Of a stretch of DNA of 62,366 nucleotides, positions 7,651-59,908 are shown in pieces; the stretch's first letter is position 1, and the number at the start of each line of letters is the position of its first letter. Location: positions 1-62,366 of IMG/VR virus record IMGVR_UViG_3300045988_033415; one strand, given 5' to 3'. The notes under the pieces are model-generated. The model worked only from the letters and a program-made list of their open reading frames with translations, did no database searches and was not told the origin of the DNA. A program made the position numbers and the translations under genes. This DNA comes from a virus.

Positions 7651-8643
7651 TTACACCGTAGCCACATATTTCTCAAAGATATTCCGGGTATGTTCTTCAC
7701 CTATATAGCTGTAATGCTTGCCGGTAACACTTTGGTCTTTGTGTCCAAGATATTCCCCAGCATCATGCACCGAACCACCACGCTTGATGATGTTGGTGGC
7801 GGTGGTCTTACGGAATAGGTGAGGATATATGCGGCGGTCAATCCTTGCGTTGTTCTTAATGCGTGTAAGCGTTGCCCTTACGCTATCTTCACTCATTGAC
7901 TTATCTGTGCGGCTTTGGGTAAAAAGCGGCTTATCGGGGCTGTTAGAGCCGTTCCTTGACACGATATAGTCGCGCAGATACTTGTAAGCCACATCATCAA
8001 GATAGACTGTTCTGTAATTCTGCGTTTTGGGTGCGAATATCCGCACTGTCTTATTATTCCAGTCCACATCGGACACTTTCACATTGATTAGCTCACCGAC
8101 ACGGACAGCGGTTGAACGAAGAAATTCTATAATTGCCCTGTCCTTAGGAGCAGTGCAACCGCTTTTTAATTGTTCATATTCTGTCGGCTCCATGTGGTCA
8201 ATCGGCTTTTCAATTTCCTTGTATGCCTCGATTGCGTCACATGGGTTGCGGTCAATTATATTCTGTTTGCACAACCAACGATAAAATGCCGATATATTAC
8301 GGCGGTGATTGTTAAGCGATACAGCGGAATTGTTAGGTGCAAGACTGCCTAAGAAGCCCTCAATGTCGATTGAGGTTATATCGGCTATTGACTTGTTAGC
8401 GTATTTGATAAGTTTGTTGACAGTATCAAGGTAATAGCTTGCAGTTTTGGGCGATATTTTCGGTGCTTTTATCTTATTAAACAAGTCAAATATCTGCTCA
8501 TCAGTGTAAGTGCTTGGTTTATCCACAATATTCACAGTCAACAGTTCACAGCTTATGGCATCAACCAAGACAGCCATAGCCTTAGCTGACAGAAAATCGG
8601 TCATTTTGGTTACAACATTGTTAATAATTGTCGCTTTGTTCAT
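7651..8643 (-). CDS. Tyrosine recombinase/integrase (XerC/D-like)
   Basis: RSTAVRVGEL (Arg), HLFRKTTAT (HxxR), LGHKDQSVTGKHY (His...Tyr) catalytic signature; RBS GGAGG. Confidence 0.9.
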   Translation of the reverse strand: MNKATIINNVVTKMTDFLSAKAMAVLVDAISCELLTVNIVDKPSTYTDEQIFDLFNKIKAPKISPKTASYYLDTVNKLIKYANKSIADITSIDIEGFLGSLAPNNSAVSLNNHRRNISAFYRWLCKQNIIDRNPCDAIEAYKEIEKPIDHMEPTEYEQLKSGCTAPKDRAIIEFLRSTAVRVGELINVKVSDVDWNNKTVRIFAPKTQNYRTVYLDDVAYKYLRDYIVSRNGSNSPDKPLFTQSRTDKSMSEDSVRATLTRIKNNARIDRRIYPHLFRKTTATNIIKRGGSVHDAGEYLGHKDQSVTGKHYSYIGEEHTRNIFEKYVATV

Positions 8644-9023: not shown

Positions 9024-9037
9024 CCCTCTCCTCTTTT
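9011..9037. terminator. Bidirectional terminator GGAGAGGG-aataa-CCCTCTCC between convergent genes
   Basis: 8-bp perfect stem read directly; T-rich on + side. Confidence 0.7.
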
Positions 9038-9398
9038 ACTCATCTAACAGTTTCTTTGCTATTTCAGCAAGATTTTCCCAGTCTTTGACGGTTAGCCTTG
9101 TTAAGGCTGATACAAATTTTTTCTGGAAATTGTCATCTTTTAAAGCCATCGTCTCACTGACGAAAGCTCCGATTTCCTGCTCCTTGGTTCTTGATTTGAA
9201 CATTTCCCCGATGCCATTCCGAAGCCACTCTTCATTGACGTTAAATTCTTTACATATCAATGCTATAGCTGAATCACTAGGAATACTTCTACCCATTTCG
9301 TATGTTGCAACAGTGTTTCTTTTCACTTTTATTTTGTCAGCAAATTCTTGTTGCGTCAAATTCAGAGCATTTCTTATCTTCCTAATACGCTCATTCAT
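9036..9398 (-). CDS. CI-like repressor, XRE-family HTH
   Basis: IRKIRNALNLTQQEFADKIKVKRNTVATYEMGRSIPS HTH pattern; divergent from early operon. Confidence 0.85.
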   Translation of the reverse strand: MNERIRKIRNALNLTQQEFADKIKVKRNTVATYEMGRSIPSDSAIALICKEFNVNEEWLRNGIGEMFKSRTKEQEIGAFVSETMALKDDNFQKKFVSALTRLTVKDWENLAEIAKKLLDE

Positions 9399-9440: not shown

Positions 9441-9495
9441 TTGTTGAAAAAATCAACAAAAATATGTTGACAAATGTTTTTTAATGACATATAAT
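9441..9495. promoter_or_regulatory. Genetic-switch region: palindrome TTGTTGA-aaaaa-TCAACAA (9441-9459) plus rightward consensus promoter TTGACA(9467-9472)-17-TATAAT(9490-9495)
   Basis: Read directly; a leftward TTGATT-17-TAATAT promoter overlaps the palindrome on the other strand. Confidence 0.7.
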
Positions 9496-9527
9496 TGTTT
9501 TACAATCAACAGGAAAGAGGTGAGAAC

Positions 9528-10202
9528 GTGAACGAACTTGTACATTTAGAGCATGATGAAGCTGTATGCAGCAGTTTGGAGGTTGCTGAAAAGTTTGGTA
9601 AAAGACATGACAAGCTGATTTCAGAAATAGAAAGAATGTACTCTGATTTAATTGGAAAAGGGTGTGTCCAAAATGGTGGAGACCCCCTATTTGTAAAAAG
9701 TAGTTACATTCATCCGCAAAATAAACAGGAATATCCAATGTACCTTATGAACCGAGACGGCTTTTCATTATTGGTAATGGGATTTACTGGAAAGAAAGCG
9801 TTAGATTGGAAACTTAAATACATAAACGCTTTTAATCAGATGGAGAATTACATCAGAGAGAAACAGTCGCAGTCTTGGATTGAAACAAGAGCAGTCGGTA
9901 AGCTGTCGAGAAAAGCTGAAACAGATGTATTGAAACAGTTAGTTGAATATGCCAAACAGCAGGGAAGCGAACACGCTGATATGCTGTATATGACATATTC
10001 AAAACTGGCAAATAAAACTGTCGGTGTGGCTGATAGAGATACCGCAACCGCTAAACAACTGATGAACTTATCCGTCACAGAAAATATCATATTGAAAGTA
10101 GTTGAAGAAGGTATCAACCAACAGCTCCATTATAAAGAGATTTACAAGAATTGTAAAGACCGATTGGCAATAGTCAATCAGTTAGCGTATTTGACAGTGT
10201 GA
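9528..10202 (+). CDS. Rha-family phage regulatory protein
   Basis: SSLEVAEKFGKRHDKLISEIE...PMYLMNRDGFSLLVMGFTGKKALDWKLKYINAFNQME; GTG 9528 after RBS AAGAGGTGA. Confidence 0.85.
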   Translation: MNELVHLEHDEAVCSSLEVAEKFGKRHDKLISEIERMYSDLIGKGCVQNGGDPLFVKSSYIHPQNKQEYPMYLMNRDGFSLLVMGFTGKKALDWKLKYINAFNQMENYIREKQSQSWIETRAVGKLSRKAETDVLKQLVEYAKQQGSEHADMLYMTYSKLANKTVGVADRDTATAKQLMNLSVTENIILKVVEEGINQQLHYKEIYKNCKDRLAIVNQLAYLTV

Positions 10203-10370: not shown

Positions 10371-11156
10371 TTGAACGAAGTTAAGACAGTAGAAACAAGA
10401 ACGCCGATTGAGATTGCCCTTGACATTGACAGCGAGGGCATGACAACGGCGAGAAAGCTTTATGAGTTTTTAGAGCTTGCGCCACAGCATTATGCAAGGT
10501 GGTGTAAGTCAAATATTACCGAGAACGAGTTTGCAGAGGAAAATGTTGATTATTGGGCATTCACCATTAATGGGGAATGGGGTGGACAGGCTACGACAGA
10601 TTACAAGCTCACAGCTCACTTCGCCAAGAAGTTATCCGTCAAGGGTAACGGCGAGAAAGCAGAACAGGCAAGGGAATATTTTACGGCGGTTGAGGAGAAA
10701 GTCAAGCAGACTGCTATTGACCGTTCACAGTTATCACCACAGCTACAGCTTATGAACATGCTTGTTGAGAGCATGAACAAGGCGGAGCTTGAACAGAAGC
10801 GACAGGCACAGCAGATTGAGCAGGTACAGACAACAGTTGACAACATGAAAGAAATCTTTACACAGCCGATTGGGGACTGGCGGAATGAAATCAATGCACG
10901 GATAAGGGAAATCTCAATCAAGAGCGGTATTGACTATCAGACACTTTACAACGAGCTTTACGGACGGCTTGAAACGATAGCTCATTGTAGCCTACAGCGG
11001 TTACAGGACAACAAGAGGTCACGCATGGAAAAGGCGGGCAACACCAAGACGGCGATAAGAGAGGCAACCACGAAGATTGCAATTATCTACGAGAAGCCAC
11101 AGCTTAAAGCGATATTTGAGGACGTTGTTAGACGGTATGCGATGGCTTATGCGTAA
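10371..11156 (+). CDS. AntA/AntB-type phage antirepressor
   Basis: ARKLYEFLELAPQHYARWCKSNI...DYKLTAHFAKKLSVKGNGEKAEQAREYF pattern; TTG start. Confidence 0.75.
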   Translation: MNEVKTVETRTPIEIALDIDSEGMTTARKLYEFLELAPQHYARWCKSNITENEFAEENVDYWAFTINGEWGGQATTDYKLTAHFAKKLSVKGNGEKAEQAREYFTAVEEKVKQTAIDRSQLSPQLQLMNMLVESMNKAELEQKRQAQQIEQVQTTVDNMKEIFTQPIGDWRNEINARIREISIKSGIDYQTLYNELYGRLETIAHCSLQRLQDNKRSRMEKAGNTKTAIREATTKIAIIYEKPQLKAIFEDVVRRYAMAYA

Positions 11157-11165
11157 GGAGGTACA

Positions 11166-11576
11166 ATGTCAATTCTATACTTATTGATGGTGCTGATACA
11201 GATAACAACAGCAGTACCGAACAGCATAGAGAAGTCCGTGGACTATACAAGTGCTATGTCGGGTCTGTCTAAGGGAATATCGGACGAATGGCAATCATTT
11301 ACCATAACCGCCTACTGTGGTTGTGAGAAATGCTGTGGTAAGACTGACAGGATAACAGTAACAGGTGCGCACGCTGTTGAGGGCGTTACCATAGCGGTTG
11401 ACCCTGCGGTTATTCCTTACGGCTCACTGGTTGACATTGAGGGTATCGGAACATTTGTTGCTGAGGACTGCGGCGGTGCCATCAAGGGTAACAAGATTGA
11501 TATTTACTTTGAGCGACATGAGGACGCTTTAAAATTCGGAGTTTGGGAAGATTGGAGAGTGAGGATAAGAGAGTGA
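11166..11576 (+). CDS. 3D-domain cell-wall-binding/lytic protein with N-terminal TM/signal segment
   Basis: AVDPAVIPYGSLVDIEGIGTFVAEDCGGAIKGNKIDIYF matches 3D-domain pattern. Confidence 0.8.
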   Translation: MSILYLLMVLIQITTAVPNSIEKSVDYTSAMSGLSKGISDEWQSFTITAYCGCEKCCGKTDRITVTGAHAVEGVTIAVDPAVIPYGSLVDIEGIGTFVAEDCGGAIKGNKIDIYFERHEDALKFGVWEDWRVRIRE

Positions 11577-28246: not shown

Positions 28247-28450
28247 ATGAAGCTGTCAAAGCTGACTAAGCCAGAGCTTGAACATATTAGCAGCAACGCC
28301 AATTTTACAGAGGAAGAGCTAGAAGTGTTTAAACTTCTAGCTAAAGGGAAAACTATTACAGAGATTGCTCAACAAATATCCGTGTGCAATAGAACTGTGA
28401 ATAGAAGAATAAGCAAAATAATGTCAAAAATCAGCAGATTGGAGGGGTAA
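28247..28450 (+). CDS. Sigma-70 region-4/LuxR-type HTH regulator (candidate late-gene activator)
   Basis: EELEVFKLLAKGKTITEIAQQISVCNRTVNRRISKIMSKI. Confidence 0.6.
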   Translation: MKLSKLTKPELEHISSNANFTEEELEVFKLLAKGKTITEIAQQISVCNRTVNRRISKIMSKISRLEG

Positions 28451-28623: not shown

Positions 28624-29985
28624 ATGGAATGTGTTGTGTACATGAGAGTATCAACAGAGAAGCAAGTCGAAGAAGGCAACGGACTAGAAAGCCAAAAAAG
28701 AGATATTCTCGACTACTGCTCTAAGAACGAGCTGATTGTGACAGATTGGTATGTTGACGATGGCTACACCGGGGCAAATATGAACCGCCCTGAGCTTCAA
28801 AGGCTTGTTGCCGACTGCAAGCACAAGAGGATATCTTGTGTGGTGGCTTTTAAGCTCGACAGATTATCAAGGAATATGATTGACGGGCTATATATGATTG
28901 AGAAGATATTCCAGCCAAACGATGTACAGTTTAAGTGCGTACATGATAGCGTAAGCTATGATAGTCCAATGGAGCAGGCGTATACACAAATGATGGCGGT
29001 TTTTGCACAGCTTGATAAGAATACAATGATGTTGCGTATGCGTGGTGGCATGTTGGAAAGAGTAAAACAAGGCTACTGGCCGGGTGGCGGTAATACGCCT
29101 TATTGCTATTCTTATAGCAAAGACCAAGGTATATTAATACCTATCCCAGAACGCGCAGAACAAGCAAGAAAAGGTCTTGAATTGTACATCAAAGGATATT
29201 CGGATATAAAAATTTGCAAAATATGTGGATATAAAGGCGAGAAAGTTGTCCGGCAGATACTCACAAGCCCGGTAAATATCGGTATGATACCATACAAAGG
29301 CAAGATATATCAAGGTTTACATGAGCCTATTTTTGATAAAGAGCTGTTTGAGCTTGCGCAGCAGTTGAGGAAATCCCGAAGTCTTAATAAGGCAAGCTGT
29401 ATAACTGAACCGAACTTATTGACAGGGCTGTGTTACTGCGGCGTGTGTGGATGCGCTATGCGGTATCAGAAGTGGACACATGGAAAGCACAAGATATATT
29501 GCATGTCAAGAAATAAGGCTATGTCTTATTTGCCAAACCACAACCCGGACTGCAGCAATTCACTTGAATGGGCGGACGATATAGAGGAGCAAGTTGAGAG
29601 AGAAATACTCAAAATATCGCTTGACTTATCATCGTACAAGCCTAAAGAAAAGGAAACAAAGCTTGATATTATGCAGTCACAGCTTGACAAGGAGCAGACA
29701 AAATTGAAAAGGCTGTATGGCTTGTATGCTGATGGGAATGACACAGTACTGAGTATGATTAAGGAGCTTGAAGGGAATATATCTGCGATTAAGGATAACA
29801 TTGCAGGAGAACGGAAGAATTTTTCGGCAAAACAGAAGAATGCTATCGTTTATGATGAAATAAAAAAACTTGCCGATGTTTGGGACAGCATCGACAAGAA
29901 ACAAAAAAATATGATACTTAAAACTATAATTGACAAGATAATCATTGTCAACGGAAACATTGAGATACAGTTAAAGAGTTTTTAG
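28624..29985 (+). CDS. Large serine recombinase
   Basis: VYMRVSTEKQ nucleophile motif, KLDRLSRN, recombinase domain and CGVCG...zinc ribbon, C-terminal coiled coil. Confidence 0.9.
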   Translation: MECVVYMRVSTEKQVEEGNGLESQKRDILDYCSKNELIVTDWYVDDGYTGANMNRPELQRLVADCKHKRISCVVAFKLDRLSRNMIDGLYMIEKIFQPNDVQFKCVHDSVSYDSPMEQAYTQMMAVFAQLDKNTMMLRMRGGMLERVKQGYWPGGGNTPYCYSYSKDQGILIPIPERAEQARKGLELYIKGYSDIKICKICGYKGEKVVRQILTSPVNIGMIPYKGKIYQGLHEPIFDKELFELAQQLRKSRSLNKASCITEPNLLTGLCYCGVCGCAMRYQKWTHGKHKIYCMSRNKAMSYLPNHNPDCSNSLEWADDIEEQVEREILKISLDLSSYKPKEKETKLDIMQSQLDKEQTKLKRLYGLYADGNDTVLSMIKELEGNISAIKDNIAGERKNFSAKQKNAIVYDEIKKLADVWDSIDKKQKNMILKTIIDKIIIVNGNIEIQLKSF

Positions 29986-30080: not shown

Positions 30081-30113
30081 GTCGCCAAGCTGTCACTTTG
30101 GGCGGCTTTTTTT
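30081..30113 (+). terminator. Terminator GTCGCC-loop-GGCGGC + T7
   Basis: Read directly. Confidence 0.6.
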
Positions 30114-30145: not shown

Positions 30146-30307
30146 ATGTTGTCGGACAAAGTGAAAGAAAAACTTTTCGCAAAGAAAGAAATACAACAGC
30201 TTGACCTGATGACAGTATCCCTTGTCATTAGCGCGATTGATGAAGCAACAGAGGAGGTAGAAGAAGATGCAGTTAAACAGTCCTCAATATATGAACAGCG
30301 TGTATAA
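30146..30307 (+). CDS. Small hypothetical protein, 53 aa
   Basis: Hand translation; RBS AAAGGAGGG; overlaps next gene by 41 nt. Confidence 0.45.
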   Translation: MLSDKVKEKLFAKKEIQQLDLMTVSLVISAIDEATEEVEEDAVKQSSIYEQRV

Positions 30308-30806
30308 TCCACAAGGGTTTTATCCACAGCAGTACGGCAATTATGCGCCATATCAACAGATACAGCAACAGAGATTTCAACCGCAAGAGCAATATCAGGC
30401 AATGCAGAATCAGCAGGCGATACCCCAGCAGACAATAGGGCTTAACGGACGCATTGTGCAAGTTGTCGAAAACATCAATGCCAACGAGGTCCCTATGGAT
30501 GGCAGTATGGCATTTTTCCCAAAGCAGGATTTATCAGAAATATATGTCAAAGGTTGGAACGCTGACGGAACAATCAAGACGATTGTGTATAAGCCCCAAA
30601 TAGACAATAAATCTGTGCAAGCGGTAAATACTTCACTTGATACGGAAAAACTCAAAATTGACCTGTCAGAACAAGCCACAGCAGGCATTATGCAACGCTT
30701 TGATGACTTATCGGCAAAGATTGAGCAGTTGGAAAACAAGGTAGCTTTAGGAACGCAAAGAAAAAATTCACAATCGCAAAGTAAAAAGGAGAGTGATGAG
30801 GCATGA
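30267..30806 (+). CDS. Protein with Q/N/Y/P-rich prion-like N-terminus (~57 aa) and globular C-terminal part
   Basis: MQLNSPQYMNSVYNPQGFYPQQYGNYAPYQQIQQQRFQPQEQYQAMQNQQAIPQQ...; RBS GAGGAGG. Confidence 0.75.
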   Translation: MQLNSPQYMNSVYNPQGFYPQQYGNYAPYQQIQQQRFQPQEQYQAMQNQQAIPQQTIGLNGRIVQVVENINANEVPMDGSMAFFPKQDLSEIYVKGWNADGTIKTIVYKPQIDNKSVQAVNTSLDTEKLKIDLSEQATAGIMQRFDDLSAKIEQLENKVALGTQRKNSQSQSKKESDEA

Positions 30807-31039
30807 TGAACCCGATGCAATTAATTCAAATGATGCGTGGCGGCAATCCGCAGCAGTTCTTACAGCAGATGATGGGGAATAACAGCGTAATGAGCAACCC
30901 TATGGCTAGAAATGCTATGCAGATGGCTCAAAAAGGAGATTCCAAGGGCATAGAGCAGATGGCTAGGAATTTGTGTCAAGAAAAAGGGTTAAACCCCGAT
31001 GACATTATAAAGCAAATTAAAAGTGGATTTGGAATATAG
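30803..31039 (+). CDS. Met/Gln/Asn-rich small protein
   Basis: MMNPMQLIQMMRGGNPQQFLQQMMGNNSVMSNPMARNAMQMAQ... Confidence 0.7.
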   Translation: MMNPMQLIQMMRGGNPQQFLQQMMGNNSVMSNPMARNAMQMAQKGDSKGIEQMARNLCQEKGLNPDDIIKQIKSGFGI

Positions 31040-31097
31040 CATATTAGAGGAAAACCCGGGAACCTCTTTATGAATAAATTAAACAGGAGGACAAAAT

Positions 31098-31913
31098 ATG
31101 TTCAACTCAAATTGTGCATCGGTTCCGTTGGTCGCCAATATCGACGGAAACAATAATAATGGCTGGGGAGCTGACGGCGGATGGCTTTGGTTTATAGTCG
31201 TTATCTTTGCGATTTTCGGTGGCTGGGGCGGTGGCTTCGGCGGCTGGGGCAACAATGGCGGCGGTGCTATGCAGGGCTACGCTACGCAAGCAGATATTCA
31301 GCGCGGATTTGATAATCAGGCGGTTATCTCAAAGCTTGACGGATTATCAAACGGCTTATGTGATGGCTTCTACGCTATGAATAACAGTGTACTTACTGGT
31401 TTCAACGGTATTAACACAAATATCATGCAGACCGGTTATGGCATCCAGCAGGCTATTAACGCTGATACAGTTGCTAACATGCAGAATACCAATGCTTTAC
31501 AAGCGCAGCTTGCTAACTGCTGCTGCGAGACGAGAGAAGCCATTCAGGGTGTAAACTACAACATGGCAACCAACACCTGCGCTTTGCAGAACACCATGAA
31601 TAATAACACAAGAGACATTATTGACAGCCAGCAGGCAGGAACGAGGGCAATCCTTGACTTCTTGACGCAGGACAAGATAGCAACACTCACAGCAGAGAAT
31701 AACGACTTACGCAGAGCTGCTTCACAGGATAGACAGAATGCACTTCTGACTACAGCTATGACAGCACAGACAAGTCAAATTCTTGACGCTGTAAGGCCTA
31801 CACCAGTTCCGGCATATCCAGCAGCTTCACCTTGCGGGCTTGGCAATTGGTCACCGAATGTGTTAGCAAATGGCTGTGGCTACAACAATGGCTGTGGCGG
31901 TTGCAACTGCTAG
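31098..31913 (+). CDS. Gly/Asn/Trp-rich membrane protein with CCC motif and C-terminal Cys cluster
   Basis: GGWLWFIVVIFAIFGGWGGGFGGWGNNGGG TM/Gly region; LANCCCETREAI; ends NGCGYNNGCGGCNC; RBS CAGGAGGA. Confidence 0.75.
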   Translation: MFNSNCASVPLVANIDGNNNNGWGADGGWLWFIVVIFAIFGGWGGGFGGWGNNGGGAMQGYATQADIQRGFDNQAVISKLDGLSNGLCDGFYAMNNSVLTGFNGINTNIMQTGYGIQQAINADTVANMQNTNALQAQLANCCCETREAIQGVNYNMATNTCALQNTMNNNTRDIIDSQQAGTRAILDFLTQDKIATLTAENNDLRRAASQDRQNALLTTAMTAQTSQILDAVRPTPVPAYPAASPCGLGNWSPNVLANGCGYNNGCGGCNC

Positions 31914-32058
31914 TTACAACTGAATAATTGAGTATCTTAATTGAGTTTAACTCGATTATGTCTGCTATGCAGTATTACGTTGGTACCGACATTGATGTCG
32001 GGAGCATGGGGCAGACTTGTATGGTTTGCCCTTATTTTTGTGAAAGAGAGGAAATAAA

Positions 32059-32487
32059 ATGGCTGAATTTTCAAGCGTTGCAACACAGACAGTTGCAGTA
32101 AACGGAAATGTATTATTTACAGATACACCAACATCAATTTGCAATAAAGGATATATCACGCATAGAACTGGAAGTGGTTTAATCAATGTAAAGGGGGCAA
32201 CGAACACTTGCAGGGCAAAGTACAGAGTGGAATTTAATGGAAATATTGCAGTTCCTACAGGTGGAACAGCAGAAGCAATTTCATTAGCTATTGCTGTCGA
32301 GGGCGAGCCAGATTTATCTACACTGGCAATCTCTACACCGACAGCAGTTGAAGCATTTAACAATGTGTCTATGGCTACAGATGTATGGCTTCCTTGCGGT
32401 TGCTGTCAAGCAATTTCTGTTAAGAATACATCTGAACAGGCTATCAGCGTTGCTAATGCTAACATTACAGTTAATCGTGTTGGATAG
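32059..32487 (+). CDS. BclA-C-terminal/C1q-TNF-like jelly-roll candidate
   Basis: QTVAVNGNVLF...HRTGSGLINVKG...YRVEFNGNIAV...ISVKNTSEQAISVANANITVNRV alternating-strand pattern resembling BclA CTD (recollection). Confidence 0.45.
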   Translation: MAEFSSVATQTVAVNGNVLFTDTPTSICNKGYITHRTGSGLINVKGATNTCRAKYRVEFNGNIAVPTGGTAEAISLAIAVEGEPDLSTLAISTPTAVEAFNNVSMATDVWLPCGCCQAISVKNTSEQAISVANANITVNRVG

Positions 32488-32638
32488 ACTTGTTTGGAAT
32501 GTATGCAATAAGCGCATTATCAACAATTCTGCTGATTGGTATTAGAGTTTGCTTAGAGTACTCTTTCAACTGCTTTTCAACCTCTTTGTCAAGAGTTGTA
32601 GAAAAACGAATGCGGTTTTTAAGTTCATCTTTCGGCAT
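32471..32638 (-). CDS. Ribbon-helix-helix protein (55 aa from ATG 32638)
   Basis: MPKDELKNRIRFSTTLDKEVEKQLKEYSKQTLIPISRIVDNAL; RBS AAAGGTGGTG. Confidence 0.7.
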   Translation of the reverse strand: MPKDELKNRIRFSTTLDKEVEKQLKEYSKQTLIPISRIVDNALIAYIPNKSIQHD

Positions 32639-32660
32639 ATTTACACCACCTTTCATAAAT

Positions 32661-32744
32661 TTAATTAAGTTTAACACAATTTCTTGTTGAATACAAGAAA
32701 ATAATCTGATATAATTTAATTAAGATTAAATAAACTTAATTAAG
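32661..32744. promoter_or_regulatory. Three AAnTTAATTAAG boxes (32661, 32716, 32736) around promoter TTGAAT(32687)-17-TGaTATAAT(32710-32715)
   Basis: Read directly in the divergent region between RHH gene and 32762..33496. Confidence 0.6.
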
Positions 32745-32761
32745 GAAAGCGAGGTAAAGTT

Positions 32762-33496
32762 ATGCCATTTGCCAAAGGACATAATCTTAATCCCGGTAAA
32801 TATGTGGCTGGGTATGAAGACGAATTTGTCACAATTAAAAAAAGAATTGAAGACACATTTAGACCAAGCGGAGAGACTGTGAGAAACTATATTTGCATAT
32901 GTAAAGAATGTGGTAAAGAGTTTTCGACATCTCACACTATGATAAGAGACCACTTCGCAACTTTTTGCAAAGAATGTAAAAAAGAAAGAAGAAAGGAAAA
33001 GAAAAATAAATATTACGGTACAAGAATTTATTCAATTTGGAGAAGCATGTTGAATAGATGCTATTGGGAAAAACATAAACATTATAACAATTATGGCGGT
33101 AGAGGAATAGCAGTATGTGATGAATGGAGATTTAACTCTACTGCTTTTGGAGATTGGGCGATAAGTAATGGATATGCGGACAATCTATCAATAGACCGAA
33201 TTGATAATAATGGAAACTACTGCCCCGAAAATTGCAGATGGGTTACTTGGAAAGAGCAAATGAAAAATAGAAGACCTTTCAGTCGCAACACCAGTAGCAG
33301 AAAGGCTAATAACAGAAAGATTAATAGTAAGAGAAGTCAAAATGCACTTATTGAAATAAATGGTATTATCAAAACAAGGAATGAATGGTGCGATTTTTAC
33401 GGTATTTCAAGAAAAACCGTAGATAAAAGAATTTATGAATTAAAATGGGATGTTGTAGAAGCTATTACAACACCTCCTAGAAAGAGAGGAAAATAA
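32762..33496 (+). CDS. Paralog of 16780..17433 (YNNYGGRGI...CDEW...DRID...NCRW motif protein) with N-terminal zinc-ribbon
   Basis: IYSIWRSMLNRCY...HYNNYGGRGIAVCDEW...SIDRIDNNGNYCPENCRWVTWKEQ. Confidence 0.4.
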   Translation: MPFAKGHNLNPGKYVAGYEDEFVTIKKRIEDTFRPSGETVRNYICICKECGKEFSTSHTMIRDHFATFCKECKKERRKEKKNKYYGTRIYSIWRSMLNRCYWEKHKHYNNYGGRGIAVCDEWRFNSTAFGDWAISNGYADNLSIDRIDNNGNYCPENCRWVTWKEQMKNRRPFSRNTSSRKANNRKINSKRSQNALIEINGIIKTRNEWCDFYGISRKTVDKRIYELKWDVVEAITTPPRKRGK

Positions 33497-33497
33497 A

Positions 33498-34229
33498 TTG
33501 CATATTGAGAGAATACATAGAATGATTGAGTGCCTTACGGAAAAGACACTGTCCGAACTTGACAAAGGCATCGAAAACGTAAATGTTGAGGAAATGTCTG
33601 AAGCCGTTGATATGATTAAGGATTTATGCGAAGCGGAATATCGCGCGGTTATTGTAAAGTCAATGAAAGAAGCAGATGAGGAAGAGAAAGAGCATGACAA
33701 AGAACTTCTTAGAGTTTTAAAAGACGAATACGGCGAAGAGGGTGGCAGACGCTACTACGATGAATACCGCTATATGCGTACTGGCAGGTACGCACCAAAA
33801 GGCAAGGGCAGTTATGTAGGCAGACGTGGTTATGAGGAACCGCCATATTGGCACAGATACCCGGGCGATATGACAGATATGGATTATGACAGCATGGAGC
33901 GCATGAGAGACATGGATAGATTGAGCCGGGGCAAAATGTATTACACCGACATGTCAGACCGCATGGGAATGATTGACCAGCCGAGAAACGGCAGTTCTAC
34001 GGAACGTGATATGCGTGAGGGCAGAAGTGGCATAAGCCGCAAGCATTACATGGAGGCTAAGGAACAGCACAAGGCAAACACTCAGCAGGACAAGGATGCC
34101 AAAATGCAGTCACTTGACGAGTACATGAAGGAGTTGAGCACTGATATGACAGAGCTTTTAACTGATATGACACCTGAGGAACGCACAATGCTGAAAAGCA
34201 AAATGTCAGTGCTTATGACTAAGATTTAA
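33498..34229 (+). CDS. Highly charged, Met/Asp/Arg/Tyr-rich hypothetical protein
   Basis: ORF track; TTG start after GAGAGGA (ATG 33522 alternative). Confidence 0.65.
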   Translation: MHIERIHRMIECLTEKTLSELDKGIENVNVEEMSEAVDMIKDLCEAEYRAVIVKSMKEADEEEKEHDKELLRVLKDEYGEEGGRRYYDEYRYMRTGRYAPKGKGSYVGRRGYEEPPYWHRYPGDMTDMDYDSMERMRDMDRLSRGKMYYTDMSDRMGMIDQPRNGSSTERDMREGRSGISRKHYMEAKEQHKANTQQDKDAKMQSLDEYMKELSTDMTELLTDMTPEERTMLKSKMSVLMTKI

Positions 34230-34276
34230 TTTTTAAAGGTAGGGGCAGAAATGCTCCTACCATTGTGAGGTGCATT

Positions 34277-34597
34277 ATGTTTACAATTAACGGCATTAAC
34301 TGGAACTTAATATTTGTAAATGGCGCAAGCCACGATTTATTGCGTTCAGACGGCACTACAAGCCTTGCTGTGACTGATTGGAACCGCAGGAGTATATTTG
34401 TATCAACCGCACCAAAAGGGACGTATTTAAGGCGCATAATCGCTCACGAACTATGCCACGCATTTTGTTTCAGCTATGACATATCAATGCCGATTGAACA
34501 GGAAGAATATCTTGCGGGCTGGATAAGCCTTTACGGCACTGATTTAGTATATTTGCTTGACGACATCATGTCAAGCCTAGCACGGAGGGCAGTATGA
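34277..34597 (+). CDS. Small HExxH metallopeptidase-like protein (paralog of 51899..52228)
   Basis: IIAHELCHAF motif; RBS GAGGTG before ATG 34277. Confidence 0.55.
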   Translation: MFTINGINWNLIFVNGASHDLLRSDGTTSLAVTDWNRRSIFVSTAPKGTYLRRIIAHELCHAFCFSYDISMPIEQEEYLAGWISLYGTDLVYLLDDIMSSLARRAV

Positions 34598-40974: not shown

Positions 40975-41046
40975 TGGGCTATCGCCAAGCGGTAAGGCAC
41001 AGCACTTTGACTGCTGTATTCGTGGGTTCGAATCCCACTAGCCCAG
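40975..41046 (+). tRNA. tRNA-Gln (anticodon TTG), no encoded CCA
   Basis: Hand-folded cloverleaf: TGGGCTA/TAGCCCA acceptor, loop CTTTGAC, T-arm GTGGG-TTCGAAT-CCCAC. Confidence 0.9.
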
Positions 41047-41282
41047 CTTGGTCATTTATGACCACTGTTTTACTCACATTGTCATGTGGCGTAAAACCTC
41101 CTTTACGATACCTATTAGCGGAAAACTGTTAAGAGCCGTCACAAGGCTCGATAGGTTTACGGGTTTTGTTGCTGTAGTTCCCCAGTGTTCCATAACATAC
41201 TAAAAGAATAGCAACAGTGCGGACAACATAAGCCGGGAAGCTTGCGACACTGCTGATTCTCGCTGTCGCCCGTCTGCACTTA

Positions 41283-41356
41283 CGGAATATAGCTCAGTTT
41301 GGCAGAGCGCTCCGCTTGGGACGGAGAGGTCGTAGGTTCAAATCCTGCTATTCCGA
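41283..41356 (+). tRNA. tRNA-Pro (anticodon TGG), no encoded CCA
   Basis: CGGAATA/TATTCCG acceptor, D-arm GCTC..GAGC, loop CTTGGGA, T-arm GTAGG-TTCAAAT-CCTGC. Confidence 0.9.
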
Positions 41357-41448
41357 CTGCCTCGAATGAGGCACAAAGCAATACCCCTTTTGATTCAATT
41401 TTCGTGTAGCCTTGCCACCGCTCGGCAAGTAAAACAAAGAGCGGATAC

Positions 41449-41520
41449 GGCGCATTAGTCAAGTGGTTAAGACACCGCCCCTTCACGGCGGAGGCGTGAG
41501 TTCAATTCTCTCATGCGTCA
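41449..41520 (+). tRNA. tRNA-Glu-like (anticodon TTC), atypical: C at position 33 and a U-U mismatch in the T-stem; no CCA
   Basis: GGCGCAT/ATGCGTC acceptor (one G-U), anticodon stem CCGCC/GGCGG, loop CCTTCAC. Confidence 0.6.
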
Positions 41521-41540
41521 TTTAGACATAAACTGTCTAT

Positions 41541-41613
41541 TGGCATGTAGCTCAGTTGGTAGAGCAATCGGCTGTTAACCGACGTGTCGTGGGTTCAATC
41601 CCCACCTTGCCAG
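41541..41613 (+). tRNA. tRNA-Asn (anticodon GTT), acceptor U-U and 27-43 A-C mismatches; no CCA
   Basis: D-arm GCTC-AGTTGGTA-GAGC, loop CTGTTAA, T-arm GTGGG-TTCAATC-CCCAC. Confidence 0.8.
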
Positions 41614-41623
41614 CTAATTATTT

Positions 41624-41706
41624 GCCAACATGGTGTAATGGTATCACAGCGGCTTGCTAAGCCGTCCAACAGAAATGTTGTACAGGTTCAAATCCTGTTG
41701 TTGGCG
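41624..41706 (+). tRNA. tRNA-Ser (anticodon GCT), class II with variable arm CAACA-GAAA-TGTTG; no CCA
   Basis: GCCAACA/TGTTGGC acceptor, loop TTGCTAA, T-arm ACAGG-TTCAAAT-CCTGT. Confidence 0.85.
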
Positions 41707-42063
41707 TTTCGCATACAAGTGAAATGGAAATAGAGTTGTTGGTTACCTTTATTATCCTAAAACCAACCGGTATGCGAGTTGATGTGTGGCGGAAAAGGTA
41801 GACGATAATCAGATATACAAGACTTCGCTCGGTGAGACTGCGTAACGATATATGCAAGCGAGATAGCGTGAAACATCCCCTTAATTGGTTGCAAAAGCAA
41901 TGCTACCCATTATACCAATGGATGCGGAAAGTTTGGAAGATGTTCCCATAGACTTGCACGAAGGGTAAAACGAGGCGTCGGTACACGCCTATTGTATATT
42001 ATGTGTGGTGCAAATCCACACCACATCAATTTTTCAATCAAAATCGAATTACGGAGGACTACG

Positions 42064-43584: not shown

Positions 43585-43815
43585 GTGAAAATATCAATAC
43601 AGGAAATAGTACAAGAAGCGGCTGACAAGGCATTAGACGATGTCAAAATCAATAATATCCCTTTTCGTGAATGGATTGATAATGTAAATAATGCTTATGA
43701 AAATAAAAAGTGTAATTTAGCTTCATGCCGATACAATGCAGATGGCAAATGCACCAATGACGAGAAGAGAAAAGAATGTATTGAAGTTTCTGAAAAAGTG
43801 TTGTGTATAAAATGA
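43585..43815 (+). CDS. Hypothetical Cys-containing protein (GTG start)
   Basis: ORF track; RBS AGGAG. Confidence 0.6.
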   Translation: MKISIQEIVQEAADKALDDVKINNIPFREWIDNVNNAYENKKCNLASCRYNADGKCTNDEKRKECIEVSEKVLCIK

Positions 43816-43826
43816 AAGGAGATTTT

Positions 43827-44208
43827 ATGAAAAAGAAAATTTTAGTATTAGGAATGATAATCTGCATTGCACTTGGAATGGTTGGTTGTAGAACTGCAGA
43901 TGTCGTAAACCACAATCTGTCAAAAGATGGAGATGAGTTCAATCTCTATCGAAAAATTACAGTTACAAATGCAAGAACAGATACAATTATGTTGCAGGCA
44001 GAGGGATACATGAGCCTTAGCAATAACAGTAGTAATGAACTTGTAGTTACTATCAAAACAGGCGAGAACACATATTATAAAGAATATATATCTTAACGAT
44101 TGGACTTGTTATGTTATGGAGCAAACAGAACCGGTTGGAACAGATAAGTATCATTATGAATTAGTTTTTTACCCTGAAAGATTAATACCAAATATTGATA
44201 TTAAATAA
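43827..44208 (+). pseudogene. Beta-sandwich-type lipoprotein disrupted by a +1 frameshift in the TATATAT run at 44085-44093
   Basis: Signal + lipobox LGMVGC; frame 0 stops at 44094-44096, next frame continues LNDWTCYVMEQTEPVGTDKYHYELVFYPERLIPNIDIK to 44208, matching the family C-terminus (recollection). Confidence 0.6.
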
Positions 44209-50710: not shown

Positions 50711-50843
50711 CAGAGCCTAAAGGGCATTAAATAATAAGAAGATTGTGCGTTATCATGTTGCTGATGTCGGCAATATGATAGCAGGCGGTACACATTAAGG
50801 GTGGTGGGCGGTGTGCCAAAATTATACGAAAGGCGGTATATCA

Positions 50844-51167
50844 ATGCCAACAGCAGTAATTATAAGCATCGTATCAGTTGCTTTTTCCGTCTTTTTCGGA
50901 CTGTTTACCTTAGGACTTAATCTTAAGAACAACAAAAAGTCTGACAATGCAGAACTTACGGAGCGTGTAAAGGAAAATACACGCATAAATATGAAACTTG
51001 ACACAATATCAGGCAACACAACAGAGATAAAAAATGAAGTTATAGAAATGAGAAAAGAGCTTAATTCTCATGATAACCGAATTGTCAAGGTTGAGGAGAG
51101 CGTCAAGTCGGCTCATCACAGAATAGATGGGCTTGAAACAAGGATTAACAGTGATAAGGAGGACTAA
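50844..51167 (+). CDS. XhlA-like membrane-anchored coiled-coil lysis-associated protein
   Basis: N-terminal TM then heptad coil ...IKNEVIEMRKELNSHDNRIVKVEESVKSAHHRIDGLE; directly upstream of holin. Confidence 0.5.
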   Translation: MPTAVIISIVSVAFSVFFGLFTLGLNLKNNKKSDNAELTERVKENTRINMKLDTISGNTTEIKNEVIEMRKELNSHDNRIVKVEESVKSAHHRIDGLETRINSDKED

Positions 51168-51170
51168 GAC

Positions 51171-51440
51171 ATGGATTTCACACAGGTATCAACAGTAGTT
51201 GCAATCGTTGTAATTACATATCTGATAGGCTTAGGAGCCAAGGTAATTCCGCAGATTAAGGATAATTTCATTCCTATAATTGTCGGCATTGCAGGTGGCA
51301 TCTTAGGCGTTGTCGGAATGTATGTAATACCTGATTTCCCAGCAACAGATGTTCTCAATGCAATAGCAGTAGGTATTGTGTCGGGACTGTCCAGCACTGG
51401 TGTAAATCAAATTTACAAGCAGGTAAAGAAAAATGCTTGA
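51171..51440 (+). CDS. Holin (putative, 2-3 TM)
   Basis: VVAIVVITYLIGLGAKVIP...IPIIVGIAGGILGVVGMYVIP...AIAVGIVSGL, charged C-terminus KQVKKNA. Confidence 0.6.
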   Translation: MDFTQVSTVVAIVVITYLIGLGAKVIPQIKDNFIPIIVGIAGGILGVVGMYVIPDFPATDVLNAIAVGIVSGLSSTGVNQIYKQVKKNA

Positions 51441-54685: not shown

Positions 54686-55963
54686 GTGGCAGAGATAGAC
54701 AGCTTGGAGATACAACTTCAAGCGAACGCTCAAAAGGCAAACACGGCAATAGACAGCCTTATAACTAAGCTTAGCAGCCTTGCAACATCGCTTGGACGTG
54801 TTAACGGTTCAGAACTTAATACGTTGTCAATGAATGTCACTAACCTAAGCGCATCCATGAGAGCCATTAACGATGTAGGTACGGCAAGCTTCTCAAGACT
54901 TGCTAAAAACATCGGAAAAATAGCAAGCGTTGACAGTTCGGCGCTTAATGCAGTTGCAAGCTCACTTAATTCCACAGCAAGCGCATTTAATCAGTTTACA
55001 GCGGTGTCTGAGAACGCAGCACAGATTGGTGAAGTCGCTAAGAACATAGCAAAGCTTGGCAACAAGAGTGTTCAAACCTCAATTACGAATATGCCGCAGT
55101 TGGCAACCTCGCTCACGAACTTACTCACAACGCTTGCGAGCGCACCAACAGTAAGTAATAACGTCATTCAGATGACCAATGCACTGGCGAATTTAGCCAG
55201 TCAAGGTTCAAGGGTAGGTTCTGCTTCACGGACAATCCAAAGAAGCCTAAATGGGGTTCACAGAAGCGCACAGACGGCAACTAAGAGCACATGGTCACTG
55301 GCTAAGGCTTTCGGTAAATTTTACGCGTCATACTTTATGGTTGTGCGCGGAGCTAAGAGTTTGTGGAAATCCATTGAAAGCACCACGGATTACATCGAGG
55401 CATTTAACTATTATGCGGTTGCATTTGGCAAGATTGGTTCCGAATGGGGCAAGGATTTTGAAAAGTTCGGCTATGACAATGCTACCGATTATGCGAACAG
55501 CTTTTCGGATAGAGTAAGTGCGTTGCTTGGTAAGCTTTCAGGATTACAGGTTGATGTTGAGGGTGGATTGCTCGCGGCAGACGGCGCAAAGAACTTGGGC
55601 TTGAATATCCAAGAGGTTACGGAGTTTGCGTCACAGCTTGCTTCGGTGACTAATTCACTCGGACAGACAGGAGAGACAACCACGGCAGTAGCAAAGTCAA
55701 TGACAATGCTTGCAGGCGATATAAGCTCTCTTTTCAACATAGACTATACATCCGTAGCCACCAACATTCAAAGTGGCTTAATCGGTCAATCAAGGGCATT
55801 GTACAAGTATGGTATTGATATTACCAATGCTACATTGCAGACATACGCTTACAACTTAGGTGTTGAGAAATCCATAAGTGAAATGACGCAGATGGAAAAG
55901 CAGCAGTTAAGAGTACTTGCTATACTTGACCAGTCTAAGGTGTCATGGGGTGATTTAGCTAAT
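54686..55963 (+). CDS. Tape measure protein, exon 1 (426 codons, ends ...VSWGDLAN)
   Basis: GTG start after GGGAGGTG; track ORF then runs 16 non-conserved codons to TAA 56009-56011. Confidence 0.7.
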
Positions 55964-56302
55964 AAACGGAAGAAAGTTTATAAATTAACTTATCTTCCAA
56001 GTGTTGCATAAGAATAGAAATATCTTATGGCAATCGGGCAATATCGGTGAAGGCTAAGGCTTTAGGCTATGCTAATACCGAGGTAACTCAATAGATTGCG
56101 AGCAGGCTATTGAGTATCGTAACGAGTAGGAAGTGAATAAATATAATCTTCCCAAGAGTGTCCGACACTACTGCATGTAGGGCAGTATGAGGTGGAAGTG
56201 GCTACCACCAAACCAAACGTAATACGTGGGTGATAATGTACTCTGAACTTATAGGAAACTATAAGAAGTATAGGATAAAGAGCCTATACGATAACATAAT
56301 TG
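55964..56302 (+). ncRNA. Candidate ORF-less group I intron (339 nt) inside the tape measure gene
   Basis: Follows a U, ends in G. Helices: 55968-73/55993-98; 56087-94/56107-14; 56191-95/56205-09; 56249-54/56259-64 with GAAA loop; 56268-74/56283-89. Removal restores frame. Confidence 0.6.
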
Positions 56303-59300: not shown

Positions 59301-59665
59301 GTGCCTACACCACAGAGGGCTTCAAAGATGGCATGGAGAGCCTTTATGAGGCAACGCAGTTGTCGGCAAAGGATTTTGGCTTTGGTGTTGTTGAAGCTGT
59401 ACACCCACAGCAGTTGTACAGTGGTTATGCCGATTACACGCCGAGCGTAAGCACATCGACAAGTACCACCACACAGAACTATTACAATACAAGTTCGAGT
59501 GTGGACAATGCCGAGACAAACGCACTACTGAGAGAGCAGAACGAGTTATTGCAACGCATACTTGCCAAGGAATACGGCATAAGCAAAAGCGATATAGGCA
59601 AAGCTTCAAGAGAGTATGCGAGAGACTTTTTTAAGCGGACAGGGCGTGACGCTTACACATTTTAA
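56303..59665 (+). CDS. Tape measure protein, exon 2 (starts TINSPSNMIRQF...)
   Basis: No ATG/GTG and no Shine-Dalgarno at the 5' end of this 1121-codon frame; long helical/TM-rich TMP-like sequence. Confidence 0.7.
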   Translation, partial: TINSPSNMIRQFNTNVKETGMVLGQIFIPVLQKVMPVVNGTTIAIKRMLVGIASLMGVKIDFDAFGQNGYKDTSDGLEDIANGYDDVADAAKNAQKGVRGFDELENRTTGTSKSGASTGTGDTIDLTDEIVKATEEYEKVWNDAFDKMENKAEAWADKIVKALFPVKSIFKNFVAGDFFAAGQDTSSLVSGLFNWVAGAIDDVPWFTIGRNVGKYLAGLDWTEILKSAAKVLWEGFKGALEFYAGMFTAAPLETVVVSFMAMPGLLKAITASKFVTGVKKLWSNFKAFGTVVNNTALALSGDAAATATLATMFPNLSSKVTAVKTAFTNLATSIQNKGLWRGINDSITSLRNKLTGFQKGLIGVASTAIEFTVLKDAFNDLTVGSDNMLLSIGKIAGVSAAAAGAMYLAFGPAGIAIAGITGVVAAISGIKKGLDEVEQSSMISALSIEGGATLEEFNQKATSTFDNVKEKAEETTQKISEIDTVKSNIADTVESIGTIYTAVESGAKNAEDEIPRFKSAFEQLKTDTESVLKQEYDVIVGYILGAVSDTTEALGGETPKAVANALGELYGVQEGMLNSLADTREEYDRLMTALDNGEISMNEFIEKATPLAEKLSLTGTEAETAVDKIASYGKALDLSQYISDNKFDVESFTTDINAVAQSAQDGVDAVKTANENFNKTFDEWKANAEKQGQEISEKSQNIIDSYIGKDLDKNLQQINDAYTEYANAVQYGLLEQLPSVIEKATEGYENLNWFSKAFTTETGYVNKVIGKWQNDVLNPTSKAIQEGFNQLGIEATPFAGEAAKKIYGELFDEKYIGFGEVPVYVLKSNYESIISDATANLPNYVNTKMQNVGESSVTGYVGGVNSNSQQLIKPVAGLANLSLSTFMEAQGSQGDKPSSGFNSIGQNSILGYMEGIKALTLAVTDKMKKLGGMASTAFADKVTVGMPSVGVQVMNGFMNGLSSMETTLYSKVDEIAANVATTMQKALDIHSPSRVMFELGAYTTEGFKDGMESLYEATQLSAKDFGFGVVEAVHPQQLYSGYADYTPSVSTSTSTTTQNYYNTSSSVDNAETNALLREQNELLQRILAKEYGISKSDIGKASREYARDFFKRTGRDAYTF

Positions 59666-59679
59666 AATTGCGTAACTCA

Positions 59680-59876
59680 TTGAAAATTATGCAATTATAA
59701 TGTATAATGAAGTCACAATTTAATTTGTAACATTATAACGAAAGCATTAAAGAATACCAGTCGGCGGGCTGGCGGCAGAGTTGGTGTTACGAACAGTAAG
59801 AGGATGCAGGCAGAGTGAGCTTGAAGTAATTCCCTCAGCAGATACATTGTAGAAGTGTACCTGTTGAGGGTTTTTT
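59680..59876 (+). promoter_or_regulatory. Promoter TTGAAA(59680)-17-TGtTATAAT(59703-59708), ~125-nt GC-rich leader, then terminator CCCTCAGCAG...CTGTTGAGGG + T6 (59832-59876), upstream of Rha gene
   Basis: Read directly; no ORF in leader. Confidence 0.6.
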
Positions 59877-59908
59877 ATTACAAATCATCAACAGAAAGGA
59901 ATGATATT

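Follow-up and report, generated by a model that had tools for sequence, protein, structure and literature searches.

The architecture of an N-terminal membrane segment followed by long helices with conserved cysteines is known from holin T of phage T4 and from the i-spanin Rz of phage lambda. Heads of the C1q/TNF type are found in the Bacillus endospore appendages, where CC motifs join C1q-headed tip proteins to the fibres and where the ExsF trimer grips a terminal peptide of the fibre protein (PMC12357932). The present analysis deals with a block of five consecutive genes, designated P1 to P5, which are all located on the plus strand at positions 30146-32487 of the virus record IMGVR_UViG_3300045988_033415; the whole stretch analysed, that is, positions 1-62,366 of that record, is referred to as the window. 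The protein encoded by the fourth gene of the block is predicted to cross the membrane once and combines a long amphipathic helix with an invariant CCC motif and a cysteine-rich tail; the product of the fifth is modelled as a free-standing C1q/TNF-type jelly roll.

The families represented in the block form one conserved cassette, about half of these cassettes have a BclA/TNF-like domain in their slot for a small beta protein, and the core membrane protein is common to viruses of three very different host groups. None of these three points is recorded in the libraries and papers searched, and a survey of the literature on the PHROG identifiers, on the "spike/glycoprotein" annotation in crAss phages, and on phage BclA/C1q proteins returned no paper on the cassette.

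Organization and Conservation of the Gene Cassette

Synteny was analysed in 86 loci, comprising 79 loci from GTDB genomes and additional phage loci, by means of iterated hidden Markov models (HMMs) and all-against-all clustering. The GTDB hosts are nearly all Clostridia (Lachnospiraceae, Oscillospiraceae, Acutalibacteraceae, Ruminococcaceae, and others), and every locus context found belonged to a phage or prophage. Neither order nor strand varies among the 86 loci, the order being (P1)-P2-small protein-P4-small beta protein, usually followed by a relative of the protein encoded in the window at 33498-34229. The co-occurrence of the five genes elsewhere, which an earlier note on this DNA had raised as a point to be checked, is borne out by this fixed order. 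In GenBank phages, tblastn found P4 and P5 adjacent to each other in at least 13 records, with P2, P3, and P4 collinear in several.

Judged by sequence criteria, P1 to P5 are real genes and not chance open reading frames (ORFs), since P2, P4, and P5 match PHROGs 21718, 16490, and 20016 with E values of 2e-15 (residues 13-162), 7.7e-58 (residues 8-269), and 7.5e-47 (residues 1-142), respectively, and many related clusters exist in public data. All three PHROGs are labelled "unknown function", and their linkage as one cassette is unrecorded there. The earlier note had pointed to the five ORFs because of their striking composition; all of them were found at the coordinates it gave, and its composition figures were confirmed. 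Its view that none of them is a standard virion or replication protein is in agreement with the lack of a match of P1-P5 to any known virion or replication family in Pfam, NCBIfam, and PHROGs.

P1 (30146-30307) encodes an acidic protein of 53 amino acids with a net charge of -5; its start is preceded by a strong ribosome-binding site, AAAGGAGGG. It is an optional member of the cassette, with relatives directly 5' of P2 in about 15 of the 86 loci. P2 (30267-30806; 179 amino acids; phrog_21718), which in about 78 loci precedes P4 in the same orientation, is composed of an N-terminus rich in Gln, Asn, Tyr, and Pro (65% of residues 1-57), a conserved domain of approximately 55 amino acids, a predicted helix, and a basic/acidic tail. 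P3 (30803-31039) encodes a Met/Gln/Asn-rich protein of 78 amino acids, with these three residues accounting for 40% of the sequence. The reading frames of P1 and P2 overlap, as do those of P2 and P3, where the start of P3 overlaps the P2 stop codon. A protein of about 75 amino acids is encoded between P2 and P4 in 75 of the 86 loci, belonging either to the P3 family (about 30-36 loci) or to phrog_22984 (73 amino acids; 45 loci). Homology between these two families was rejected, given an hhalign probability of 7% and HMMs without cross-detection.

The position directly 3' of P4 is occupied by P5 in 42 loci and by an alternative, cysteine-rich all-beta protein of approximately 134 amino acids in 38, for example, in L035. 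Homology of P5 to the alternative protein was likewise rejected (hhalign probability, 0.3%), and the two are therefore treated as positional analogues only. The next member, in the window a protein of 243 amino acids (33498-34229, plus strand), has helical ends around an acidic, R/G/S/Y-rich centre of low complexity. Relatives of it follow just 3' of P4/P5 in 66 of the 86 loci, including each of the 42 with P5. The window protein itself has no significant match in the PHROG search, and a relative from another locus matches phrog_28802.

In the window, P5 is separated from this downstream gene by a ribbon-helix-helix (RHH) gene (32471-32677, minus strand) and an HNH endonuclease gene (32762-33496, plus strand). 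The same pair is present at the same place between the beta protein and the downstream gene in locus L039, and in the closely related loci L007, L010, and L011, P5 directly abuts the downstream gene. By this comparison of gene order, the RHH and HNH genes are regarded as a mobile insertion that splits P5 from the remainder of the cassette. The functional unit extends beyond 30146-32487, into 33498-34229 on the far side of this insertion. Insertions of HNH homing-endonuclease genes are seen at differing intergenic positions of the cassette, namely, at 32471-33496 in the window and at 6097-6960 in L002, 3689-4678 in L014, 4945-6669 in L031, 7540-8658 in L039, 4964-5809 in L053, and 5119-5796 in L083.

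On the upstream side, small regulators of the sigma-70 region-4/GerE-like type are encoded 5' of the cassette in about 43 of the 86 loci. They form two families, one located at -1.4 kb (23 loci) and the other at -1.6 kb (20 loci); one of the two shows a Sigma70_r4 match. A protein of 127-129 amino acids (phrog_3754, unknown function) with a papain-like Cys...His...Asp pattern is encoded directly 5' of P2 in 42 loci, an example being 7029-7412 in L092; it is absent from the window. No significant match of P1-P5 or of their neighbours was obtained in Pfam, NCBIfam, or PADLOC, the sole match to the PADLOC defence models being a weak one of the P4 helical region to ZorA (E = 0.015). Sequence and profile searches of the PDB with P4, P5, P2, the alternative beta protein, the downstream protein, and the cysteine-peptidase-like neighbour gave no significant match either.

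The Core Membrane Protein P4

P4 (31098-31913; 271 amino acids; phrog_16490) is the core of the cassette, with more than 8000 related clusters at 90% identity and 1757 representatives at 50% identity. At approximately residues 28-52 it contains one hydrophobic, Gly/Trp-rich transmembrane segment. Cysteine makes up 4.1% of the sequence (11 residues), as compared with 1.75% for the other proteins of the phage; among the 11 are C141-C142-C143 and those of the C-terminal NGCGYNNGCGGCNC. When 34 diverse relatives were aligned, the features seen to be conserved were a short, nearly uncharged N-tail, the Gly/Trp-rich membrane segment, a Gly-rich linker, the motif PxPVPAY, and, at the C-terminus, a GCGxCxC cluster; the CCC motif at 141-143 is invariant, and C161 is nearly so.

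The AlphaFold monomer model predicts a membrane helix at residues 28-40, a further helix at residues 74-100, and a continuous helix at residues 109-232, with a predicted local distance difference test score (pLDDT) of 70-89 over residues 150-240. The family-averaged hydrophobic periodicity of the long helix is 3.60-3.65 over 124 residues, which is matched by 0.9% of shuffles. A canonical heptad coiled coil was rejected, there being no signal at period 3.5. The observed periodicity indicates an uninterrupted amphipathic stripe, which is typical of non-heptad (hendecad-containing) bundles or of surface-bound helices. Because a helix of 124 residues cannot stand alone, P4 presumably oligomerises.

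The same membrane segment and CCC helix recur in homologues from Clostridium perfringens phages, the Butyrivibrio phage Ceridwen, crAss-like phages, the Bacteroides phage C3_41T2LP (a cultured phage of Bacteroides uniformis), and viruses assigned to Methanomassiliicoccales. The cysteine-rich tail is kept in all groups but the archaeal one, where the homologues have two CCC motifs and no cysteine tail. Long hydrophilic extensions precede the membrane segment in the archaeal-virus (approximately 80 amino acids) and Bacteroides-phage homologues (approximately 55 amino acids), which favours an orientation of P4 with the N-terminus inside and the C-terminus outside. The idea that these extensions are fused P3 domains was rejected, since no HMM matches were obtained even with filters off. 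In the crAss-like phage cr53_1, the P4 homologue is read through recoded TAG; both this gene and the next one (L003, 4665-5579 and 5597-6037) contain in-frame TAG, consistent with the known stop-codon recoding of the lineage. A representative of the 50%-identity set with 399 amino acids (P0294) has a P4-like N-terminal half, extending to just past CCC, which is fused to a GDSL/SGNH-hydrolase-like C-terminal domain; this fusion reflects either a naturally exchanged head or a chimeric assembly.

Ceridwen, whose host is a rumen bacterium not known to sporulate, carries P2, P4, and P5. It is considered virulent by its authors (PMC7372960), and the presence of the cassette in phages regarded as virulent implies that it is not merely cargo for lysogenic conversion. 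The genomic position of the cassette differs among its carriers. It follows the replication genes in the window and in Dulem virus 39, lies in the early region before Gam/Erf in the C. perfringens phages, and follows RecT and a resolvase in C3_41T2LP. In Ceridwen and Dulem virus 33 it is placed after the lysis genes; in L092 it lies at one margin of a short island, preceded by a Phage_Mu_F head gene; the P4 homologues of cr53_1 and of the archaeal viruses are located beside tail genes and diversity-generating retroelement genes.

In L092 (3325-11205), the cassette is part of an island of about 8 kb, consisting of the Mu-F-like gene, a regulator, and the cassette, which is flanked by host genes. 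A similar island in L094 adjoins three consecutive serine recombinase genes. These islands may represent remains of prophages or small mobile elements.

The Small Beta Protein P5

P5 (32059-32487; 142 amino acids; phrog_20016) has 659 related clusters at 90% identity, all of approximately 141 amino acids. In an alignment of 28 family members, C115-C116 is invariant and C51 nearly so. The AlphaFold2 model is all-beta, with a pLDDT of 89.4 and a predicted template modelling score (pTM) of 0.84. When this model was compared with the PDB by Foldseek, 144 matches at E <= 1e-3 were obtained, of which the best 50 are nearly all of the C1q/TNF type (BclA/ExsF, EDA, 4-1BBL, C1q), with template modelling (TM) scores of up to 0.75. 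The best match is the C-terminal domain of F-BclA (9h38; E = 1e-7; TM, 0.68). The top matches also include ExsF/BxpB (9h3d, 8d02, and 7r1m; TM, 0.70-0.75), EDA-A1, and the C-terminal domain of BclA (1wck, 3twi), and two phage fibre knobs (8ke9, 9eul) are found further down. According to the earlier note, the strand pattern of the 142-amino-acid protein resembled the C1q/TNF-like domain of BclA; as a prediction of the fold, this was right. Among viral models in BFVD, the best matches are free-standing proteins of 130-145 amino acids from uncultured gut phages (TM, 0.80-0.90), some of them automatically named "BclA protein", followed by giant-virus collagen-like/C1q proteins and by phage fibre proteins, including fibritin and tail-fibre proteins. 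P5 would presumably be a homotrimer, by analogy with every C1q/TNF domain.

At the level of sequence, membership of P5 in the BclA_C family is not supported. No match was obtained in Pfam at E <= 1, BclA_C (PF18573) included, and neither the single sequence nor the family profile matched BclA, F-BclA, or ExsF in the PDB. A collagen-like GXY stalk is missing from P5, whose 142 amino acids make up the globular domain only, and there is no collagen-like ORF in or beside the block. Neither P5 nor the alternative cysteine-rich beta protein has a Pfam match to Ena DUF3992 or F-ENA DUF4183. A signal peptide was not found in P5.

Possible Function of the Cassette

As a tentative reading, which we consider possible rather than probable, the cassette would encode a membrane-anchored stalk (P4) and a beta protein that would serve as its interchangeable partner, the site of action being the membrane of the infected host. 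P4 would oligomerise via its glycine-zipper-like membrane segment and its long helix, and its cysteines would lock the oligomer, either through disulfides, of the kind seen in many extracellular helical bundles, or through a bound metal. In the infected cell, P4 would project from the cytoplasmic membrane. Its exchangeable partner or head would be the beta protein encoded right after it, which is P5 in about half of the loci and the unrelated cysteine-rich beta protein in the others. P2, P3, and the downstream protein might help to assemble or to regulate the complex. Since relatives of P4 occur in viruses of monoderm and diderm bacteria and in viruses assigned to Methanomassiliicoccales, the target should be one that is common to all of these hosts, which points to the cytoplasmic membrane or to components of the phage itself rather than to a wall or spore layer. 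What the stalk would do there is a matter of speculation; our guess is an envelope-level function in the infection cycle, for example, the exclusion of other phages or the control of membrane integrity. In favour of this reading, the block in the window counts as neither late nor structural, being located 12 kb upstream of the terminase gene, after the replication genes, with terminator-like hairpins before P1 and P5. The fixed synteny, the fold of P5, the architecture of P4 and its retention across phyla, and the orientation suggested by the N-terminal extensions are counted in its favour as well, and the Bacillus endospore appendages, with their CC-coupled C1q-headed tip proteins and the peptide-gripping ExsF trimer, provide an analogy.

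A more far-reaching version, which we regard as rather doubtful, would have P4 and the next beta protein constitute a two-gene, membrane-anchored "stalk plus head" device with a helical instead of a collagen stalk, an invariant CCC ring as a lock, and a swappable head, which would make it a viral counterpart to BclA-type fibres or to membrane-bound TNF/EDA. The P4 family would then be a previously unrecognised, envelope-independent membrane machine common to viruses of Bacillota, Bacteroidota, and gut methanogenic archaea.

Several points weigh against a stalk with an exchangeable head. The contact between P4 and P5 as well as the oligomeric state and the topology of P4 rest on inference, and the AlphaFold monomer model of P4 is poor overall (pLDDT, 59; pTM, 0.24). 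When tail class was compared with partner type, nearly identical P4 tails were found to accompany either type of beta protein, so that there is no co-variation of tail and head. P5 and the alternative beta protein both lack a signal peptide, and without one they would be unable to reach an extracytoplasmic P4 stalk before lysis. Cysteine-rich exported domains are, moreover, unusual for Firmicutes. Outside phages of Bacillota, only P4 is demonstrably shared; an assignment of gp67 and gp65 of cr53_1 as homologues of the downstream protein and of the alternative beta protein, respectively, is unsupported, there being no detectable homology. Finally, with the position of the cassette varying among phages, no single expression class can be assigned to it.

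Among the other explanations, a virion-associated role is unlikely but survives best. P4 would then form the shaft of a fibre or would be ejected and insert into a membrane, with P5 or its alternative as the distal knob and with the cysteines forming cross-links outside the reducing cell. TNF-like jelly rolls are indeed common as fibre knobs, as illustrated by 8ke9, 9eul, and the fibritin and tail-fibre matches in BFVD, and the absence of signal peptides from both beta proteins would suit virion components. The P4 homologue stands beside tail genes in cr53_1 and the archaeal viruses, crAss homologues have been labelled "viral fiber" or "spike protein" by their depositors, and the cassette of L092 follows a head gene; the repeated invasion by HNH genes is likewise what is seen with other conserved phage genes. 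However, in the window, Dulem virus 39, the C. perfringens phages, and C3_41T2LP the cassette belongs to the early or replication region, far from the structural genes. A strongly hydrophobic segment of 15-20 residues would be atypical of a soluble fibre, and a structural PHROG match is lacking.

It is quite improbable that the cassette is an accessory of lysis or egress, in which P4 would perturb the membrane at the end of infection as a holin with a large ectodomain (like T of phage T4), as an i-spanin-like protein, or as a fusogen-like protein. The resemblance of the P4 architecture to holin T and lambda Rz is in line with such a role, as is the location after the lysis genes in Ceridwen and Dulem virus 33; in cr53_1, the P4 homologue is two genes away from genes annotated as holin- and LysB-like. 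Methanomassiliicoccales lack a cell wall, and the viruses assigned to them, which also carry P4, would have only a membrane to breach. On the other hand, the window possesses a canonical holin elsewhere (51171-51440; phrog_1129, E = 1e-21), no endolysin gene adjoins the cassette there, and in several phages the cassette is found among early genes. P4 as the holin of the phage was rejected, given the lack of a holin-family match, the canonical holin in the window, and the lack of an adjacent lysin. As to spanins, these need an outer membrane, which is absent in most of the hosts concerned. No lipoprotein partner of a two-component (Rz/Rz1) system is encoded in the cassette, most carriers are Clostridia, and relatives of P4 occur in archaeal viruses as well. 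The host spread of P4 argues against any role that is tied to one type of envelope, such as that of a spanin.

An entirely intracellular function is held to be similarly improbable. Here, P4, facing the cytoplasm, would act as a membrane-tethered scaffold, like p16.7 of phage phi29, or as part of a membrane-bound condensate, recruiting P5 and two low-complexity proteins, P2 and the downstream protein, and thereby organising replication or assembly. The cassette adjoins replication or recombination genes in four phage groups, the partners are all devoid of signal peptides, cysteine-rich domains would suit the reducing cytoplasm, and three members have disordered regions rich in aromatic residues, Arg, Gln, Asn, and Gly. 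Yet the homologues from archaeal viruses and Bacteroides phages, with their long N-terminal extensions, speak for a stalk outside the cell, and the library scans detected no DNA-binding domain.

The earlier note had raised, as a speculation, a surface or spore-associated module by which a cell, spore, or virion surface would be decorated or cross-linked, and had called Cys-rich and BclA-like proteins hallmarks of spore outer layers. The reading considered here is that of a module acting on the spore or exosporium surface of a sporulating host. It is true that the closest solved structures to P5 are Bacillus exosporium proteins, that the partners are cysteine-rich, that most carrier genomes are Clostridia, and that a serine recombinase gene adjoins the cassette in the window. 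However, C1q/TNF-like folds are also common in phage fibre knobs and in collagen-like proteins of giant viruses, so that the fold is no hallmark of spores. There is no sequence match to BclA_C, ExsF, CotY/ExsY, Ena, or any other spore family, and no collagen-like stalk. The recombinase is adjacent in four lineages only. P4 homologues are found in viruses of non-sporulating hosts, namely, in Bacteroides phages, crAss-like phages, and archaeal viruses (neither Bacteroides nor methanogens sporulate), and P2, P4, and P5 are present together in Ceridwen, which is regarded as virulent (PMC7372960). This distribution makes a role at the spore surface very unlikely; the reading is largely refuted, and the block should not be annotated as spore-associated.

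That the five genes are unrelated small ORFs lying side by side can hardly be upheld: no member has a known function and P1 and P3 are not universal, but the identical order and strand in 86 loci from many genera, together with the overlapping frames of P1/P2 and P2/P3, refute chance clustering.

Summarizing, the proteins of the cassette are ordinary members of existing PHROGs of "unknown function", with P4 as a family common to phages of the dominant gut Clostridia, to crAss-like and Bacteroides phages, and to viruses of gut methanogens. The presence of a cassette of four to six genes across such different envelopes probably reflects a general step of infection in the anaerobic gut, and the repeated invasion by homing endonucleases fits its strong conservation. 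With three cultured carriers, namely, Ceridwen (Butyrivibrio), C. perfringens phages such as XP41-N3 and HMD-PC1, and C3_41T2LP (B. uniformis), the function of the cassette is directly testable.

Genomic Surroundings in the Window

With approximately 62 kb, the window represents a siphovirus genome in circularly permuted form. Near-identical copies of the cassette proteins are present in public metagenomes. A tyrosine integrase and a CI-like repressor are encoded at 7.6-9.4 kb (7651-8643 and 9036-9398, both on the minus strand), recombination and replication genes at 11-27 kb, and the structural genes from 44300 onwards, beginning with the terminase and continuing with portal, major head protein, split tape measure protein, and tail protein. 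As described in the earlier note, the block is located downstream of a serine recombinase, upstream of an RHH gene, and separate from the structural operon. It follows the replication genes and lies approximately 12 kb upstream of the terminase, and the minus-strand RHH gene overlaps the P5 stop.

The large serine recombinase (28624-29985, plus strand; Resolvase, Recombinase, and Zn_ribbon_recom domains) is preceded by a small GerE/sigma-70 region-4-like regulator (28247-28450, plus strand), an identical gene of which in L004 matches Pfam GerE. A serine recombinase is found 5' of P1 in four lineages only (the window, L007, L010, and L058); it is probably an insertion and is placed outside the cassette. 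The phage possesses two recombinases, the tyrosine integrase beside the CI-like repressor and the serine recombinase amid the early genes. A protein encoded just upstream of the terminase (43803-44096, plus strand) matches recombination directionality factors (phrog_478, E = 8.5e-24).

A consensus scan, on which both predictions are based, indicated two terminator-like hairpins with T-runs on the plus strand. One (30087-30108) lies 3' of the recombinase gene and 5' of P1. The other, with 10 pairs (32008-32032), is contained in the 145-nt spacer between P4 and P5, directly 5' of the P5 ribosome-binding site, and might set the P4:P5 expression ratio. Downstream of the cassette, 34265-34597 (plus strand) encodes a protein of 110 amino acids (phrog_1233) with a weak SprT/IrrE-like HExxH metallopeptidase signature, for which the Pfam matches are weak and under the curated cut-offs; relatives are found at about +2.3 kb in 19 loci.

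The canonical holin and the protein preceding it, which has a membrane segment and a helical region, are encoded at 50811-51440, between the head and tail genes and not after the tail genes. No endolysin gene adjoins the holin, the candidate lysins being an M23-type peptidase (2411-3166) and a small M15-like peptidase (11166-11576). The tape measure gene appears to be split into 54686-56011 and 56300-59665, which are about 290 nt apart and both match tape-measure PHROGs. Four Ant/Rha-like anti-repressor paralogues are encoded at 848-1564, 9495-10202, 10371-11156, and 59855-60559, two of them embedded in the tail gene region. A tRNA cluster at 40975-41707 comprises Gln-TTG, Pro-TGG, Glu-TTC, Asn-GTT, and Ser-GCT; a comparison with the codon usage of the Q/N-rich cassette genes revealed no specific link.

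Comparison with Known Systems

P4 follows the plan of holin T of phage T4, the i-spanin Rz of lambda, and p16.7 of phi29, in all of which an N-terminal membrane segment is followed by long helices; cysteines are conserved in T and Rz. It differs from them in being larger and in carrying the CCC motif and the cysteine tail, there is no sequence similarity in any library searched, and, unlike these proteins, P4 is found in hosts with as well as without outer membranes.

With the C-terminal domains of BclA and F-BclA and with ExsF/BxpB of the Bacillus cereus group (1wck, 9h38, 9h3d, 8d02, 7r1m), P5 shares the predicted fold and the size (E = 1e-7 to 1e-5; TM, 0.63-0.75), and ExsF is a free-standing domain, as is P5. 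The identity to these proteins, however, is only 9-18%, P5 has neither a collagen-like region nor an exosporium leader, and it is phage-encoded, also in phages of non-spore-forming hosts. P5 carries a CC motif, and it is by such motifs that Bacillus appendages couple C1q-headed proteins to fibres (PMC12357932). The stand-alone proteins of gut phages in BFVD (A0A8S5U2A1, A0A8S5S925) have a near-identical predicted fold and the same size, and they probably belong to the same or to sister families; none of them is characterised, and their names come from automatic annotation. The short tail fibre of cyanophage A-1(L) (8ke9) and the central spike knob of phi812 (9eul) have in common with P5 a jelly roll that is presumably trimeric, and they cap an elongated protein, as P5 would do on P4. 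These knobs are covalently included in a fibre protein encoded in the tail region, whereas P5 is a separate gene outside the structural module.

The closest parallel to P4 and P5 taken together would be the membrane-bound TNF ligands such as EDA-A1 (1rj7), whose succession of type II membrane anchor, stalk, and TNF-like head the two proteins would mirror if they are linked in the way proposed. In the phages, this layout would be split over two genes and would be built on a helical rather than a collagen stalk, with no homology to the ligands.

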